Assembly: GCA_030655795.1 (NCBI GenBank)
Contig: JAUSPJ010000271.1
Span: 1 to 26,449, forward strand
Direction of reading: 5' to 3'
Source of the DNA: Fidelibacterota bacterium
Lineage (GTDB): Bacteria > Fidelibacterota > UBA2242
DNA length: 26,449 bases
The notes under the pieces were generated by a model, which made no database searches, had not been told where the DNA came from, and worked only from the letters and a program-made list of their open reading frames with translations. This document shows, piece by piece, positions 2,298-13,387 of this stretch (position 1 is the stretch's first letter; each line of letters begins with the position of its first letter). The position numbers were made by a program, and so were the translations under genes.

Positions 2298-3776
2298 ATG
2301 AATTATGAAACATTTAAAAAATTTTCCAGACCGGGCTTGATCATTCCGGTCTATCGAAAATTCAACGCTGATTTCATCACACCAGTGATAGCTTACCTAA
2401 AAATACGGGAAGCCGGTAAACACTCCTTTCTACTGGAAAGTGTTATCCGCGGCGAACAGGTCGGGCGCTATTCTTTCCTGAGCCAGGAACCGTACCTGAT
2501 TCAGAAATTCACCGATAATAAGACGATCACGATCGCCGATCATAAGAACAAGATCCACAAAGAAGATTTCTTCGATCTGCTGCAGCATCAACTGAAGGAT
2601 TATGATTTACTGTTGACTGAAGAGCTGCCGCGCTTTACCTGCGGTGCAGTGGGCTATGTTGGCTATGAGATGATCGGTCAGATTGAAAAACTGCCTGAGC
2701 CGAAAATCGATGTGATTGGCACTGACGATGCGCTCTTCGGATTTTATAATCAGCTAATCGCCTTCGATCATTTGAAAAATGAGGTCATCCTGATTGCCAA
2801 TGTTTTTATTAATGAAAACAGCGATGATTATCAGCTCTTCCAGGAAGCCCAAAACCGACTGGATCACCTGCAGGATAAATTGAACAGACCATTCGATAAT
2901 TCACTGGAATTTAAGGCGGATTGGAAAACAGAGGGAGCCAATTTTACAAAAAATGATTTCCTAAAAGCTGTCGAGAAATCCAGAGAGTATATTTTTGCCG
3001 GAGATATCTTTCAGACAGTAATTTCTCAGCGTTTTTCAGTAGCCTATAGCGGTGATTCCTTTCAGGTCTATCGGACATTGCGGAATATCAATCCATCCCC
3101 CTATATGTTTTACCTCGATTTTCTGGATTATCAGGTAATTGGTTCATCGCCGGAGCCTATCATCCGGGCAGAAGATGGCGAGCTGGAGATCATACCTCTC
3201 GCCGGTACCCGTCAGCGTGGCGAGGATAAAAATGAAGATGAAGCGCTGGCTGAAAATTTACTGAAAGATCCCAAAGAACTCGCCGAACACGTGATGCTGG
3301 TGGACCTTGCCAGAAATGATGTCGGGCGAATTTCTGAATACGGTAGCGTCAAAGTAAAAGACTTCAAGACCATCCAAAAGTACTCGCATGTCATGCACAT
3401 TATTTCCAGAGTTACCGGAAAATTGCGGAAAGGTTTGACCGTTGTAGACGCGTTTAAATCGGCTTTTCCGGCGGGAACAGTCTCAGGCGCACCCAAGATT
3501 CGGGCAATGGAAATCATTAATGAACTGGAGCCGCAAAAGCGGGGTATTTATGCCGGTGCAATCGGCTATTTCAACTATGGCGGCAACATGGATCTGTGTA
3601 TCGGAATTCGCACTATCGTAGCCAGCAGGGATCGCATGTACTATCAGGCAGGCGCCGGGATTGTCGCGGATAGCATTCCCGAAAACGAATATCAGGAAAC
3701 CTTAAATAAGTGCAAAGCCCTGCGCCGTGCAATCGAGCAGGCAGACGGAGGGATCAATGATTTTATTTATCGATAA
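2298..3776 (+). CDS. trpE: Anthranilate synthase component I
   Basis: LLES and NPSPYM Trp-feedback motifs, EHVMLVDLARND, FPAGTVSGAPK and AGAGIVADS; first gene of the trp cluster. Confidence 0.96.
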   Translation: MNYETFKKFSRPGLIIPVYRKFNADFITPVIAYLKIREAGKHSFLLESVIRGEQVGRYSFLSQEPYLIQKFTDNKTITIADHKNKIHKEDFFDLLQHQLKDYDLLLTEELPRFTCGAVGYVGYEMIGQIEKLPEPKIDVIGTDDALFGFYNQLIAFDHLKNEVILIANVFINENSDDYQLFQEAQNRLDHLQDKLNRPFDNSLEFKADWKTEGANFTKNDFLKAVEKSREYIFAGDIFQTVISQRFSVAYSGDSFQVYRTLRNINPSPYMFYLDFLDYQVIGSSPEPIIRAEDGELEIIPLAGTRQRGEDKNEDEALAENLLKDPKELAEHVMLVDLARNDVGRISEYGSVKVKDFKTIQKYSHVMHIISRVTGKLRKGLTVVDAFKSAFPAGTVSGAPKIRAMEIINELEPQKRGIYAGAIGYFNYGGNMDLCIGIRTIVASRDRMYYQAGAGIVADSIPENEYQETLNKCKALRRAIEQADGGINDFIYR

Positions 3777-8810: not shown

Positions 8811-8849
8811 GTTATAATTGTGTAAATATAATCATTGCCGGAAGGGTTT

Positions 8850-9218
8850 ATGAAAAATCAATTGCGAAATTTTATCGAAATCCTCAAACTGGAACTGGAC
8901 GACCTGCAGGATGATATTCATTCTCTCAAGAAAATCTGCGAGCGCAAACTGAAAGATGGTCTGATTACCAATTACGTTCAAATGGAAAATATGGCACTCT
9001 ATGATAATGAGCTCCATGCAATAAATTCCTTCCGTAATATCCTAAATGAAACCAATCCCGAAAACTTCGATTCACTAGAAAAACTGGTGTTTCACCTGGA
9101 TGAAAATTTCAAAGCCACAATGAAGTCCTGCGCTTACGCCAAAGCCGGGCATATCTGCATCGAGCGCAAGATGCTGAAAGTGGCGAAGTATGTTCGGGGC
9201 GATGGATTCTCAAATTGA
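8850..9218 (+). CDS. Hypothetical protein, about 122 aa, predicted alpha-helical
   Basis: Clean ORF with GAAGGG before ATG 8850, amphipathic helical pattern (LKLELDDLQDDIHSL), filling the gap between trpA and the repeats. No family recognised. Confidence 0.7.
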   Translation: MKNQLRNFIEILKLELDDLQDDIHSLKKICERKLKDGLITNYVQMENMALYDNELHAINSFRNILNETNPENFDSLEKLVFHLDENFKATMKSCAYAKAGHICIERKMLKVAKYVRGDGFSN

Positions 9219-9264
9219 AATATTAAAGGTAAAAGGAAAAATTAAAAAGTATAATACCTCATTC

Positions 9265-9357
9265 GTCATCTCGCATCCCCGATTCATCGGGGTGAGAGAT
9301 CGGGTAAGACAAATACACAGGTCTTAACCGATTTTTCATCGTCCCGACACAGGTCGG
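9265..9357. repeat. REP-like palindromic unit, with its second half truncated by the IS
   Basis: GTCATCTCG-CAT-CCCCGAT-TC-ATCGGGG-T-GAGAGATC (9265-9301), a spacer hairpin GGTAAGAC/GTCTTAACC, then GATTTTTCATCGTC-CCGAC-ACAG-GTCGG ending at the IS left end. Confidence 0.7.
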
Positions 9358-9598
9358 CAATTTTATCATATAAATTAATTTGCCAAAAATTCGATATATA
9401 ATAATGAATATGCAGGATAAATCAGTACAATATTGAGGTAAAGGACAAATTAAATATGACGGTTATTATAGATAATCGTTTTATTGAATTTTTGAGATTA
9501 TCATAAATTTCATATTTACGCCTCCTTTTGTTTGGACATGTGTTATACTTTTTATTTGCTAAAAATACTATTTTGCAGAAATAACCGCCATATATTAA

Positions 9599-9627
9599 TT
9601 GACTTTCTCCTTTTTGTATATTATATT
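9599..9627 (+). promoter_or_regulatory. Putative internal sigma70 promoter of the transposase
   Basis: TTGACT (9599-9604), 17 nt, TATATT (9622-9627), upstream of GAAAGGGG and ATG 9658. The context is AT-rich, so a chance match is possible. Confidence 0.5.
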
Positions 9628-9657
9628 TACCATTATGAATTAATATTAGAAAGGGGT

Positions 9658-10113
9658 ATGATAATGGCAATTAAAAGGCAGAATAATTTCTTCTTTTCCG
9701 GCACCTCAGGTTGTCTTGCTATTAATCCTTCCGACAGTGCTGCTATAAAATTAGCTATGCTGATTGAGGGTAAATGTATGGGGTTAGGTCCTACCAAAGC
9801 TGCAAAGAAGTATGGATATACTAAACAACACTTTTTTCAAGTTCTTAATGCTTACAATGAAGGTGGAATAAAAGCGCTTAAGGATAAGAAAAGGGGACCA
9901 AGGGGAAAATACGTTAGGACTGAAGTCACAGAGAACCAAATTATTCGGCATCGATTTTTAGATCCAGACGCAAGTCCAAAAGCTATTACTCAGAAGTTAA
10001 ATCAAAGTGGATATAGAGTCAGCCTAAGGAGTGTGGAACGTACCATTACAGAAAAAGTGTTACAAAAAAAAACTTCACTTATTAAATCCTCAAAAAGAGG
10101 TAAAACCGATTGA
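9658..10113 (+). CDS. IS OrfA, helix-turn-helix DNA-binding part of the transposase
   Basis: TKAAKKYGYTKQHFFQVL...GGIKALKDKKRGPR followed by a second HTH-like segment, SPKAITQKL...SLRSVER. RBS lies before ATG 9658/9664, so the longer track start at 9532 is unlikely. Confidence 0.8.
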   Translation: MIMAIKRQNNFFFSGTSGCLAINPSDSAAIKLAMLIEGKCMGLGPTKAAKKYGYTKQHFFQVLNAYNEGGIKALKDKKRGPRGKYVRTEVTENQIIRHRFLDPDASPKAITQKLNQSGYRVSLRSVERTITEKVLQKKTSLIKSSKRGKTD

Positions 10114-11480
10114 AGTTCATGTAACAAAACGGGGAACGGAAAGCCGTTCTGCAGATGTAGAAAGTATAGAGCGTGGTGTCAGAGAATTATTGGCACAGAA
10201 AGTATCCGGAACTTTGTTAGGTATATGGTTATTGATTCCAGAGCATTTGCGTTTAGGGACATGGGATTTACTAACTACATGGACTGGTGATAATCACAGT
10301 GGGATTAAACCACGTTTAGCCCTTCAAATGGTTCATGAATCCGCGTTATGTACAACAGGAATTCGTCAAACACGTTCCTTATGTCATCAAAGTTTTGAAT
10401 TGGCAAACGGTTTACCATACATTGCCACAGATGAGGAAGTTCATTATTTATTGGATGAACACAGTATTGATGAAGCAAAAAAGTTGCAGATTAGGTTGGC
10501 TTTGCTTCGTCAATGTCTTGGGCATTATAAGAGTAATATTTTAGCCTTTGATCCCCACCGAATTCGTACTTATTCTCGCCGTATTATGCCAAAAAAGAAG
10601 AGTCGTCCCAATGAACGTTCCAATCCAGTTCTTCAGACATTTTTTGGCTTAGACGTACAGACGGGGCAACCTCTGGGATTTACCATAGGGTCATCAGGAA
10701 AAACAACTACAAGAGCTTCTTTAGAATTGTTAGAGATGATGGACATGATTTTACCATCAAATAATGTGTTACTTTTAGCAGATACAGAACATGAAAGTTG
10801 TAGATTAATAGATCACATTATCGAAAGTGACAGATACGATATTTTAATGCCCGCTGCCCGAAAGAAAGCTGTTATCAATACGATTAAAAATCTGGAATAT
10901 AAGCGTCACTGGGCTGGTTATGCCACTGCTGAAACGCAATACAGATATAAAGAAAATAAGCATGAATTCAGATTAATTGGACAGCGTAGCGGCGAAAAGG
11001 AAGAAGAATATAATTACAAACCTTTTATTACTACTGGAGATAACTCTTCCTTGGAATTAATTACAGAAGATTATCCAGAGCGATGGACTATAGAAGAATT
11101 CTTCAACTTTGAAGGAGCAATGGGATGGGATCGTGCGTCAACTATGAATTTAAACATTCGATATGGAAAACTCTCTTTGGCTCTTATTGCTCAAGCAGCA
11201 ACTTACCAACTTAAGAAAATATTGCCAAAACCATATAGAAAATGGACAGCTCCGAAGGAGTCTCTACGAGACAAAACATCTTGCAGATTCCATTTTACGT
11301 GGAATTGATGGTGATTTGCGTGTAAAGGATGATACTATCATTGCTACTTTATATAATGTACCTGAATCATTAAATTTGAAACAATATTATGAAGATTTAC
11401 CAAGTAAATTAGAGAGAGAAGGCATCAATCCTAAAATACCATGGCTGTTTGATTTTAAGTTGGATTTTCGATTCAAATAG
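10061..11480 (+). pseudogene. IS OrfB, DDE catalytic part of the transposase, frameshifted by a 22-bp insertion at 11251-11272
   Basis: Acidic motifs AFDPH and LLADTEH, plus YPERWTIE matching the Y-x2-R-x3-E signature of IS4-superfamily transposases. Frame 2 runs to KWTA and frame 3 resumes with KHLADSILRGIDGDLRV…FRFK-stop, just inside the right TIR. Confidence 0.85.
11251..11272. repeat. 22-bp double mini-hairpin insertion TCCGAAGGAGTCTCTACGAGAC
   Basis: TCC-GAA-GGA followed by GTCTC-TAC-GAGAC. Removing exactly these 22 nt restores the reading frame (TGG ACA GCA AAA CAT CTT = WTAKHL). Confidence 0.75.
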
Positions 11481-11516
11481 TATTGATGAGTCAAATTTAT
11501 TTGGGGTATAAAATTG

Positions 11517-11926
11517 CTGATAAATCGAGACAACGAAGTATCCCTTATGACCAAGGTTACGAACATTGCAGATACATTTGGGGTTTAAATCTGGCTGCGG
11601 GGCTGTGCTCCGTAGCCACGTATCCGTTCCGGAGCATGAGCCCCGGAACGAGAAATACATTGGGGTTGTGGGGGATTTTTTCGTCTTCATCCCGACTTCC
11701 GTCGGAATTTCACCGGACAGGTCGGTCGTATACTCACTCAGATGACTTGACAAGAACCTGTCATACTGAGGAGTCCCGATGCAATCGGGGTGACGAAGTA
11801 TCCCTAAGGACCAATGCGAATAGCTCAAATTTCCCGGATTGGATTCACCGCTCCAACACTCCAGTTCTCCATCGCTCCACTCTTGATAAAGGGAGATTCT
11901 TCGGTCGTTAACTCCTTCAGAAAGAC
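11517..11926. repeat. Array of REP-like inverted half-units with further hairpins (BIME-like)
   Basis: ACGAAGTATCCCTTATGACCAA (11533-11554) and ACGAAGTATCCCTAAGGACCAA (11793-11814) are 20 of 22 identical. ACTCACTCAGATGAC (11732-11746) is inverted to GTCATACTGAGGAGT (11760-11774). CCCGAT-GCA-ATCGGG is an internal palindrome. The array closes with the half-unit GGGAGATTCTTCGGTCGTTAACTCCTTCAGAAAGAC (11891-11926). Confidence 0.72.
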
Positions 11927-11938
11927 AAAGAAACAATA

Positions 11939-13387
11939 TCAATAATCTTCTTCGATATCACTATAATCGGTTTTTTCTATTTCCCGTAGCACTTTCAATT
12001 CCGCTTCGGTGTACTTCTCAATCGTAAATCCCGTGTATCCATAAAAAATCGAAACCAGCGGGTTGATGAGGTTCAGGAACGCAAAGGGCAAATAAGCAAA
12101 GGGATAAACTCCCAGCGTGGCGAACATAAACGCGCCCCCGCTGTTCCAGGGAATCAGCGAAGAGGTCAGTGTCCCGGCATCCTCCAGAATACGGCTGAGG
12201 TTCTTCGGCTTCAGCCCCCGGTCGTCATAAATCTTTTTAAACATACGGCCCGGCAAAACAATCGCCAGGTACTGGTCCCCGGCAATCATATTCGTCCCGA
12301 TACAGGTCAGAACGGTAGCCGTCACCAGTGAACCGGTACTCTTTGCCACGGAAATAATTTTCAGTGCGATGGCTTTCAGCATACCGGAGGATTCCAATAC
12401 ACCGGCAAAACTCATGGCGCAGAGAATCAGCGAAACCGTCCACATCATACTGTCCAGCCCGCCGCGGGTCAGAAGATTATCAATCGCCTCATTCCCCGTG
12501 GCCGCAACAAAACCGTAGTGGGCACTTTGGACGATATCATTCAACGATGTGTGCTGAAACAGGGCCGCAAACAGTCCGCCCAGGACCGTTCCGCCCAGCA
12601 GTCCGGGAATCGCCGGCACTTTGAATATCACCATGCCAATCACCAGCAGCGGCGGCAGCAACAGGACCGGCGAGATAAAAAACTGGTCCGACAGGCCATT
12701 AAGAATGACATTGATAGCATTCATATCCAGATCTTTACCGCCGTATCTCAGGCCAAGGAAGGTATACAGAATCAGGGCAATAACCAGACTCGGCCCGGTT
12801 GTATAGACCATATGCCGGATATGCTCAAAAAGTTTTGCGCCCGTCACGGCCGGAGCCAGGTTTGTAGTATCCGACAGCGGCGACATTTTATCCCCGAAAT
12901 AAGCCCCGGAAATGATTGCCCCGGCCACCATGGGCAATGGAATGCCAAACCCTTTCCCGATCCCGATAAGGGCAACACCCACCGTACCGGCTGTGGTCCA
13001 TGAACTTCCCGTCGCTAATGAAACAATACAGCAGATCAGCGCCGTAGCCAGCAGAAACACGCGCGGTGAAATAATTTTCAATCCGTAATAGATCATGGTC
13101 GGCACAATACCGGCGGTAATCCAGGTGCCGATGATCATCCCGATAATCATTAAAACCAGGATAGCCGGCAGTGAAATTTTAATCGTATTGATCATGCCGG
13201 TCCGTATCTTTTCCCAGCGATAGCCGGAAAAAACGGCCACAATCGCAGCCACTGCAGCTGCGGATATTAGCGGGATATGCGGGTCACCATGGAGAAATCT
13301 CAGCACATATACCAGCACTAGGGCCAGGTAAATTACCGGAACAATTGCCCACCTGAATGGTATTACGAGTTCGGTCTTTTTTTTCAT
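11939..13387 (-). CDS. nhaC: Na+/H+ antiporter NhaC family membrane transporter
   Basis: Polytopic protein with GSSWTTAGTVG, SGAYFGDKMSPLSDTTN, RGGLDSM and LEDAGTLTSSLIPWN motifs. Substrate could equally be an amino acid or malate/lactate, as for other family members. Confidence 0.92.
   Translation of the reverse strand: MKKKTELVIPFRWAIVPVIYLALVLVYVLRFLHGDPHIPLISAAAVAAIVAVFSGYRWEKIRTGMINTIKISLPAILVLMIIGMIIGTWITAGIVPTMIYYGLKIISPRVFLLATALICCIVSLATGSSWTTAGTVGVALIGIGKGFGIPLPMVAGAIISGAYFGDKMSPLSDTTNLAPAVTGAKLFEHIRHMVYTTGPSLVIALILYTFLGLRYGGKDLDMNAINVILNGLSDQFFISPVLLLPPLLVIGMVIFKVPAIPGLLGGTVLGGLFAALFQHTSLNDIVQSAHYGFVAATGNEAIDNLLTRGGLDSMMWTVSLILCAMSFAGVLESSGMLKAIALKIISVAKSTGSLVTATVLTCIGTNMIAGDQYLAIVLPGRMFKKIYDDRGLKPKNLSRILEDAGTLTSSLIPWNSGGAFMFATLGVYPFAYLPFAFLNLINPLVSIFYGYTGFTIEKYTEAELKVLREIEKTDYSDIEEDY

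Follow-up and report, generated by a model that had tools for sequence, protein, structure and literature searches.

How does an insertion sequence (IS) come to lie between two palindromes that mirror one another, with no duplicated target DNA around it? This question is raised by a window of 26,449 nt from a Fidelibacterota bacterium (GenBank assembly GCA_030655795.1, contig JAUSPJ010000271.1), which is the whole of contig C383 of a groundwater metagenome-assembled genome (MAG; 2.03 Mb, 408 contigs, 70% complete) and carries a decayed IS of 2163 bp at positions 9356 to 11518 of the forward strand. A preliminary description of this locus had reported a palindrome beside each IS end, in mirror orientation and without target duplication, and the sequence confirms this arrangement: no direct repeat surrounds the window copy. 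Palindromes that resemble repetitive extragenic palindromic (REP) elements are numerous, little is understood about how they arise and turn over, and few IS are known to target them. We consider it probable that the window element, which is decayed, belongs to a large clade within the IS4 (DDE_Tnp_1) superfamily that has two open reading frames (ORFs) and no name as yet, that this clade is specific for hairpins, and that the window copy lacks a direct repeat because its flanks derive from two different hairpins.

The element is a genuine IS, with one ORF encoding a helix-turn-helix (HTH) protein, another encoding a DDE_Tnp_1 transposase and a GC content (35%) below that of the window (44%). 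Databases contain thousands of homologs of this clade, from Bacteroidota, Ignavibacteriota and further lineages of sediment and groundwater, and the target rule of the clade can be read straight from sequence.

Target rule of the clade

Genome and metagenome searches yielded 119 related loci, including 59 unique copies for which both ends were available. An exact direct repeat surrounds 35 of these copies and measures 8 bp in eight, 9 bp in three, 10 bp in 11, 11 bp in three, 12 bp in seven and 13 bp in three. All 35 repeats begin with GA and finish with TC; TCCC or CCCC stands upstream of the repeat in 24 of the 35 and GGGA or GGGG downstream in 27. The target shown by these flanks is the palindrome yCCC-GAy-loop-rTC-GGGr, with a loop of 2–7 nt, and the two ends join between CCC and GAy on each strand, with duplication of GAy-loop-rTC. 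The length of the duplication equals that of the loop plus 6. This structure is found in two of the closest relatives of the window element: L010 (90% amino-acid identity) reads TCCC-GACGAGTC-(AGCAATTTT...AAAATTGCT)-GACGAGTC-GGGA, with the element in brackets, and L061 (89% amino-acid identity) is built in the same way around the repeat GACAAGTC. A full copy in genome G008 is 83% identical to the window element.

Variation within a single element lineage could be followed in one complete Saprospiraceae chromosome (OZ252053.1), where copies that are nearly identical (99–100% to one reference for most pairs, about 93% for two) carry repeats of 10, 11, 12 and 13 bp. A palindromic repeat in this chromosome, some 210 nt long, has ends like CACTAGTG and the target hairpin at its centre. 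It has been struck by the IS at least seven times (L023, L026, L029, L030, L031, L034 and L037) with duplications of 10, 12 and 13 bp; an unoccupied example at L031:5975-6170 holds exactly one predicted site. The GAy and rTC triplets differ among near-identical copies, and y pairs with r inside one flank and not across the element. This variation within one lineage, together with covariation in each flank, indicates that the triplets come from the target and not from the element. A model in which the triplets belong to the element and only the loop (2–7 bp) is duplicated was rejected on the same evidence.

The hairpin (REP-like) specificity proposed in the preliminary description is therefore borne out for the family, with joins at a constant position of the palindrome in 35 of the 59 copies. 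It had also considered that other copies might lie in non-palindromic DNA between ordinary short duplications; these 35 copies lie in the palindrome and have repeats of 8–13 bp. Its proposal of a cut at the hairpin base without duplication did not survive, as the joins in the same copies fall inside the stem (CCC|GAy) and 8–13 bp of GAy-loop-rTC are duplicated. The remaining 24 copies have no exact repeat, and in most of these both flanks are still hairpin halves. Two such flanks can be matched to one another: L024 (OZ252053.1 near 2.69 Mb) has on its left, and L045 (near 2.52 Mb, some 170 kb away and in the opposite orientation) on its right, one half of the same 13-bp repeat (GACGATGAATGTC). 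This pair bears the mark of an inversion produced when two IS copies recombined, and shows that such recombination does take place in this family.

The two hairpins flanking the window copy

Relatives with exact duplications define the element as running from A(G/A)C(A/G)ATTTT to AAAAT(C/T)G(C/T)T, and application of this end rule places the window element at 9356-11518. The preliminary ends (9358/11516) thus move outwards by 2 nt each, which is inside the tolerance that had been allowed for them. The first two bases of the window IS are GG where relatives have AG, and positions 9356 and 9358 are indistinguishable as the left end because an IS-free allele, described below, also has GTC-GG-GA there. 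Imperfect terminal inverted repeats extend over 29 nt (9354-9382 and 11492-11520) with 76% complementarity. Within them, the left terminal repeat of the element itself (9356-9382, forward strand) starts GGCAATTTTAT where relatives have AGCAATTTT and is more diverged than the right terminal repeat (11492-11518, reverse strand), which ends ...ATAAAATTGCT and aligns with the right ends of six other copies.

A target remnant adjoins each end. On the left (9342-9355) it consists of TCCC (9342-9345) and GAC-ACAG-GTC (9346-9355), the latter being the part duplicated in a normal insertion, and is followed by the IS start GG-CAATTTT. On the right, the IS end AAAATTG-CT is followed by a remnant at 11519-11530 that belongs to a different hairpin and consists of GAT-AA-ATC (11519-11526) and the outer arm GAGA (11527-11530). 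Each junction carries a rebuilt small hairpin, which explains why core palindromes were seen abutting the ends and why the inverted repeat appears to extend outwards. The 5-bp core palindromes of the preliminary description do lie at the ends, then, but are partly rebuilt, with the duplication and the two terminal bases of the element as their sources.

Both flanks resemble other REP-like units of this intergenic region far above shuffled controls: the left flank aligns to 11620-11710 with a local score of 33 (shuffles 15.9 +/- 3.2) and the right flank to 11777-11860 with a score of 42 (shuffles 17.3 +/- 3.0). The further idea that the half-units are reverse complements of one another found weak support, with scores of 29 and 24 against best shuffles of 32 and 28. 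An intact hairpin, TCCCGATGCAATCGGGG, lies at 11774-11790 in the same REP cluster as an unoccupied target, and the position of the right remnant within its REP-like unit equals that of this hairpin.

An IS-free allele of the locus was found in a Logan contig from another subsurface metagenome (run X2). This contig follows the window from 9029 to 9357, continues with 27 other letters starting GA and then resumes at 11759, so that it also includes the intact hairpin at 11774-11790. Its left target is a complete palindrome, TCCCGACACAGGTCGGGA. Where it has 27 nt, the window has the IS, the 12-nt remnant GATAAATC-GAGA and 228 nt of REP-like units (11531-11758, with the hairpin TCCCGACTTCCGTCGG at 11690-11705) that are missing from the IS-free allele; apart from the IS, the excess is thus 240 nt of REP-like DNA versus 27 nt. 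This comparison shows that the IS joins its left flank at the canonical 3'-arm position of a hairpin, where the IS-free allele reads TCCCGACACAGGTC|GGGA. On the right it joins at the canonical 5'-arm position of a second hairpin (GATAAATC-GAGA) heading another REP-like unit, since the right remnant heads a unit homologous to that of the hairpin at 11774-11790. As the left target is intact in run X2 and the right flank is a different hairpin, the flanks of the window copy come from two hairpins. The empty site that the preliminary description had asked for in a relative thereby confirms the left hairpin and identifies the right flank as a different one. A search for empty sites in same-genus genomes gave alignments of the coding flanks at 70–87%, with the intergenic DNA unaligned and no hairpin.

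Probable loss of the direct repeat

These observations support the view that loss of the duplication is a secondary feature of this copy, and we infer that the DNA formerly between the two hairpins was lost in a second event. A normal insertion by this clade would enter a yCCC-GAy-loop-rTC-GGGr palindrome with joins between CCC and GAy on each strand, and gap repair would duplicate GAy-loop-rTC (8–13 bp) and leave a small hairpin on either side of the element. The two positions of strand transfer would be fixed by the arms of the palindrome and not by a set spacing. The window copy could then have arisen by recombination between copies inserted in adjacent hairpins, by IS-mediated adjacent deletion, or by a single insertion that took one arm from each hairpin, with the polarity of the stagger reversed and the spacer deleted. 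The first two routes had both been offered in the preliminary description, where the recombining copies were placed in neighbouring REP halves, and they fit the evidence of the IS-free allele; the history of this particular copy is an inference.

Several observations weigh against this reading. The right junction (11518/11531) and its linkage to the left junction depend on the assembly of the MAG contig, and a Logan contig of the source run leaves the right end of the IS not into 11531 but into the flank found in contig C130 of the same MAG. The first 92 nt of C130 (C130:1-92, locus L006) are a second IS right end, identical to window positions 11439-11530, which shows that the sample has more than one IS copy. 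This identity includes the 12 nt GATAAATCGAGA beyond the IS end, after which C130 diverges into a region upstream of a 688-aa ORF. A shared GATAAATCGAGA, together with the absence of the GAGA variant from every intact hairpin in this 70%-complete genome, fits poorly with two independent insertions. The X2 allele differs from the window by more than the IS. More generally, 24 of 59 is a high share of repeat-less copies to ascribe to secondary events, some of these copies may be chimeric short-read assemblies across a multi-copy IS, and the rule is read throughout from static copies.

The best-surviving alternative, which we nevertheless judge unlikely, is the one-step route: a single insertion that used the 3'-arm of the left hairpin and the 5'-arm of its neighbour, with the DNA between them lost and not duplicated. 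The left junction falls exactly at the canonical cut position rTC|GGG and the right junction exactly at CCC|GAy, the spacing between joins is already flexible (8–13 bp), most of the 24 repeat-less copies still have hairpin halves as flanks, and IS1272, which also targets hairpins, removes part of the hairpin when it inserts (PMC4923244). Such an event is hypothetical, however, and the single duplication shared by the left side of L024 and the right side of L045 is a signature of recombination between copies and not of a one-step event.

An assembly artefact, in which the left junction of one copy was joined to the right junction of another with each copy having its own duplication, seems to us more doubtful still. 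The fragmented and incomplete state of the MAG, the second right junction in C130 and its connection in the source run all speak for this explanation, as do a depth over 10760-11170 of 2–4 times that of the flanks and a 1508-nt contig of the source run that joins foreign sequence at 10072. Two JGI metagenome contigs (L120 and L121) have an identical left junction and left flank and different right flanks, which indicates either rearrangement polymorphism or chimeric assembly across the IS. Against an artefact, the IS-free contig of run X2 places the left flank (to 9357) beside 11759 onward in a close strain; each flank of the window thus belongs to this locus, which speaks against a gross chimera. 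The source run also has a single unbranched contig over the left junction, at the depth of the flank, and repeat-less copies occur in the complete Saprospiraceae chromosome too.

Two further explanations have very little probability. A transposase whose native mode is a flush cut at the REP hairpin base, always without target duplication, would account for this copy and the 23 others without an exact repeat, and IS1272 acts in this manner (PMC5678879), but 35 of the 59 copies, L010 and L061 among them, have exact 8–13-bp repeats and joins inside the stem. The weakest of all is that the palindromes form the outer edge of the inverted repeats belonging to the element itself (element 9342-11530, the preliminary ends then being off by 14–16 nt) and reflect no target preference: the inverted repeat can be extended through the palindromes, a palindrome stands at every right end in relatives and the 12 nt after AAAATTGCT are common to the window and C130, yet the palindromes vary between near-identical copies while forming exact direct repeats within a copy, unoccupied sites hold one complete palindrome and the palindrome is abundant in genomes without the transposase; this delimitation was dropped given the variable exact duplications of relatives and the two empty sites.

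We return to flanks derived from two hairpins as the preferred explanation. The junctions suggest that the transposase may recognise two half-sites in a target whose DNA is bent or extruded (cruciform-like). A fuller version of this idea, with the palindrome read by half-sites, a stagger that varies between 8 and 13 bp with the loop, capture of a cruciform or deformed duplex, and use of two hairpins at once with deletion of the spacer, is tentative, and we lean against it while regarding it as a real possibility. If correct, it would constitute a geometry of target capture not described for DDE insertion sequences, would explain why about 40% of copies, this one included, have two different hairpin halves and no duplication, and would make the element a direct remodeller of REP clusters.

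Comparison with known insertion sequences

Targeting of REP sequences is known for members of the IS3, IS110, IS4, IS256 and IS5 families (PMC1525189), so the suggestion of an undescribed REP-targeting group stands only in part: the clade appears to be unnamed, while REP targeting itself has precedent (PMC1525189). What is new is the target motif, the definition of the joins by the palindrome arms, a loop-dependent duplication of 8–13 bp and the two-ORF organisation. The features of the REP-targeting class of Tobes and Pareja (PMC1525189) are present, namely a repetitive extragenic palindromic host target and a constant position in a repeated palindrome, which is seen in the joins of 35 of 59 copies and in two empty sites.

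The nearest parallel is ISRm22 (IS4 family, Sinorhizobium meliloti), in which three of the nine copies in REPs have no direct repeats and recombination or adjacent deletion has been invoked (PMC1525189). Like the present clade, ISRm22 is an IS4-group DDE element with all its copies at the axis of a REP palindrome, a direct repeat inside the palindrome (PMC1525189) and a portion of copies without a perfect repeat (about a third in ISRm22). It differs in its fixed 6-bp repeat, compared with 8–13 bp following loop length here, and in its target motif, and the present clade has two ORFs (HTH and DDE). A tblastn search with the close homolog P0002 gave no match at E 1e-3 in 72,556 plasmid records, among which the inclusion of ISRm22 was not checked.

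Assignment to the IS4 family itself is incomplete. The family is defined by a single unframeshifted ORF and a full YREK motif, and its IS231 and IS4 subgroups have variable repeats of 10–12 and 10–13 bp, respectively (De Palmenaer et al. 2008, PMC2266710). By these standards (PMC2266710), the present clade has the DDE_Tnp_1 transposase, direct repeats in the 8–13 bp range (35 copies) and the Y-(2)-R-(3)-E part of the signature. It departs from them in the K of Y-(2)-R-(3)-E-(6)-K, since Y-P-E-R-W-T-I-E is conserved and the K position is occupied by G, S or A (A, K, D or S when counted from the second E), and in having two ORFs, an HTH orfA of about 150 aa overlapping a DDE orfB at a conserved run of nine A (A9). 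No NCBIfam IS family model reached its cut-off: the best was IS4_1 with 39.7 bits against 115, and ISH3, IS701 and IS4_4 were weaker.

Other hairpin-directed elements are more distant. IS1397 and ISKpn1 (IS3 family) insert into the loop of enterobacterial REP/PU elements (PMC1525189). They share with the present clade insertion at the centre of a REP hairpin, with a specificity that is ascribed to the transposase, but they belong to another transposase family (IS3, rve type), and joins here lie in the stem, separated from the loop by 3 bp at either side. The duplication of IS1397 and ISKpn1 is 3–4 bp and confined to the loop. IS1272 and TnSha1 (IS1182 family) of staphylococci take hairpins as targets whatever their sequence, delete them in part and leave no duplication (PMC4923244, PMC5678879). 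IS1272 is likewise a DDE element that chooses hairpin-forming inverted repeats, so that the structure of the target matters in both cases, but a defined motif (CCC-GAy...rTC-GGG) is required here and the centre is normally duplicated; the exact duplications of 35 of the 59 copies set them apart from hairpin replacement of the IS1272 type, and the NCBIfam models for IS1182 and IS1634 gave no match at E 0.01 or better. The REP targeters of the IS110/IS1111 family (IS621, ISPpu9, ISPpu10 and ISPa11; PMC1525189, PMC11187229) show the same high specificity for one REP position but are mechanistically unrelated, with a DEDD transposase, RNA-guided target choice and a duplication of 0–2 bp.

The target rule has practical as well as mechanistic consequences. 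A duplication that follows the loop is hard to square with a rigid transpososome on B-form DNA, and the clade is therefore a tractable system for studying how a DDE transposase reads DNA structure. Since rebuilt hairpins lengthen the apparent inverted repeats, the ends of these elements are easily misplaced, and the rule (ends A-G/A-C...; duplication GAy-loop-rTC) permits their correct annotation. Copies with mismatched flanks are markers of rearrangement or of MAG misassembly.

Transposase genes and decay

The transposase of the window copy is spread over three reading frames. The HTH part, orfA (9658-10113, forward strand; ATG at 9658 or 9664), matches HTH_29 and HTH_32 and overlaps orfB (10031-11480, forward strand) at the A9 run (10064-10072), where the first change of frame occurs. 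The orfB product has a DDE_Tnp_1 domain (PF01609, 46.5 bits against a cut-off of 23, E 4.9e-12), and its intact homologs are about 466 aa long. The second change of frame is caused by a 22-nt block at 11251-11272, through which the orfB frame stops at 11308, the C-terminus continuing in another frame to 11480; an exact look-up of this C-terminal ORF returned no record. The block is missing from five relatives and from a contig of run X3. Judged from its sequence, with the 22-nt insertion in the transposase gene and the diverged left end, the window copy is inactive.

More than 2000 homologs are present in databases, typically of about 466 aa, most of them corresponding to orfB alone and named only 'transposase' in the source databases. 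Residues D173, D250 and E356/357 are invariant across 12 homologs. The same homologs, whose identity falls as low as 49%, all keep the K-K-K specified by the A run when it is read in the frame of orfB, and in one protein from the databases, P0066 (577 aa), HTH and DDE parts form a single chain. These features are consistent with programmed slippage at the A9 run giving an OrfAB protein.

The sequence joined directly to the IS at 10072 in source run X1, which is the end of the A9 run, is unrelated to the element and was not found in the MAG, and another contig of run X2 exits the IS at 10065. These joins could represent a 5'-truncated copy or a hotspot for breakpoints at the A run. A copy of the 22-nt block with 96% identity lies outside the IS in a related genome (L011:419-441), and the 14 nt that open the block recur at three places in this genome (contigs C93, C293 and C329) beside 'cgaagattc' repeats. 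The block therefore resembles a fragment from another small repeat family, not a random indel.

The palindrome in host genomes

The IS forms an AT-rich block between a 127-aa ORF (8835-9218) and a gene on the minus strand (11939-13387) whose product is named NhaC antiporter by the protein atlas. Exact look-ups of two housekeeping proteins, aimed at host taxonomy, returned no record. The exact target pattern occurs at 27 sites in this 2.0-Mb genome, fewer than the copy number of classical REP families (>100). Only five of these sites fall within open frames of at least 120 codons, which cover 90% of the genome, and 22 lie outside them. Among 41 related genomes, the palindrome was found in 37 (0–52 sites each, compared with 0–2 for a reversed control pattern) and the transposase in three. 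This distribution indicates that the IS exploits a pre-existing REP-like element and is not its creator. Around the IS, the REP-like units combine several small repeats in a patchwork that includes no IS-end sequence, and an origin of the hairpins or REP units as IS derivatives (solo ends, miniature inverted-repeat elements or excision footprints) is unsupported by either the distribution or the content of the units.

Small hairpins at 11690-11730 (TCCCGACTTCCGTCGG and CCGGACAGGTCGG) are separated by AATTTCA, a layout that, speculatively, might recall left and right IS junctions with nearly all the DNA between them removed, though the loops differ. Elsewhere in the genome, a tandem array of four tRNA-like units spaced 84–92 nt apart (contig C77, ~3150-3430, and C280:47) contains TCCCGATGGAATCGGGA, which matches the target motif of the IS and resembles an anticodon stem-loop. 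A repeat family around the same palindrome (...caagtcaatttcttg-TCCCGACGCGTCGGGA-g.aaattttaatttc.cgacg...) is present in both orientations in contigs C48, C133, C160 and C350, and its left part bears a faint likeness to the IS end (GTCAAATTT...TTG).

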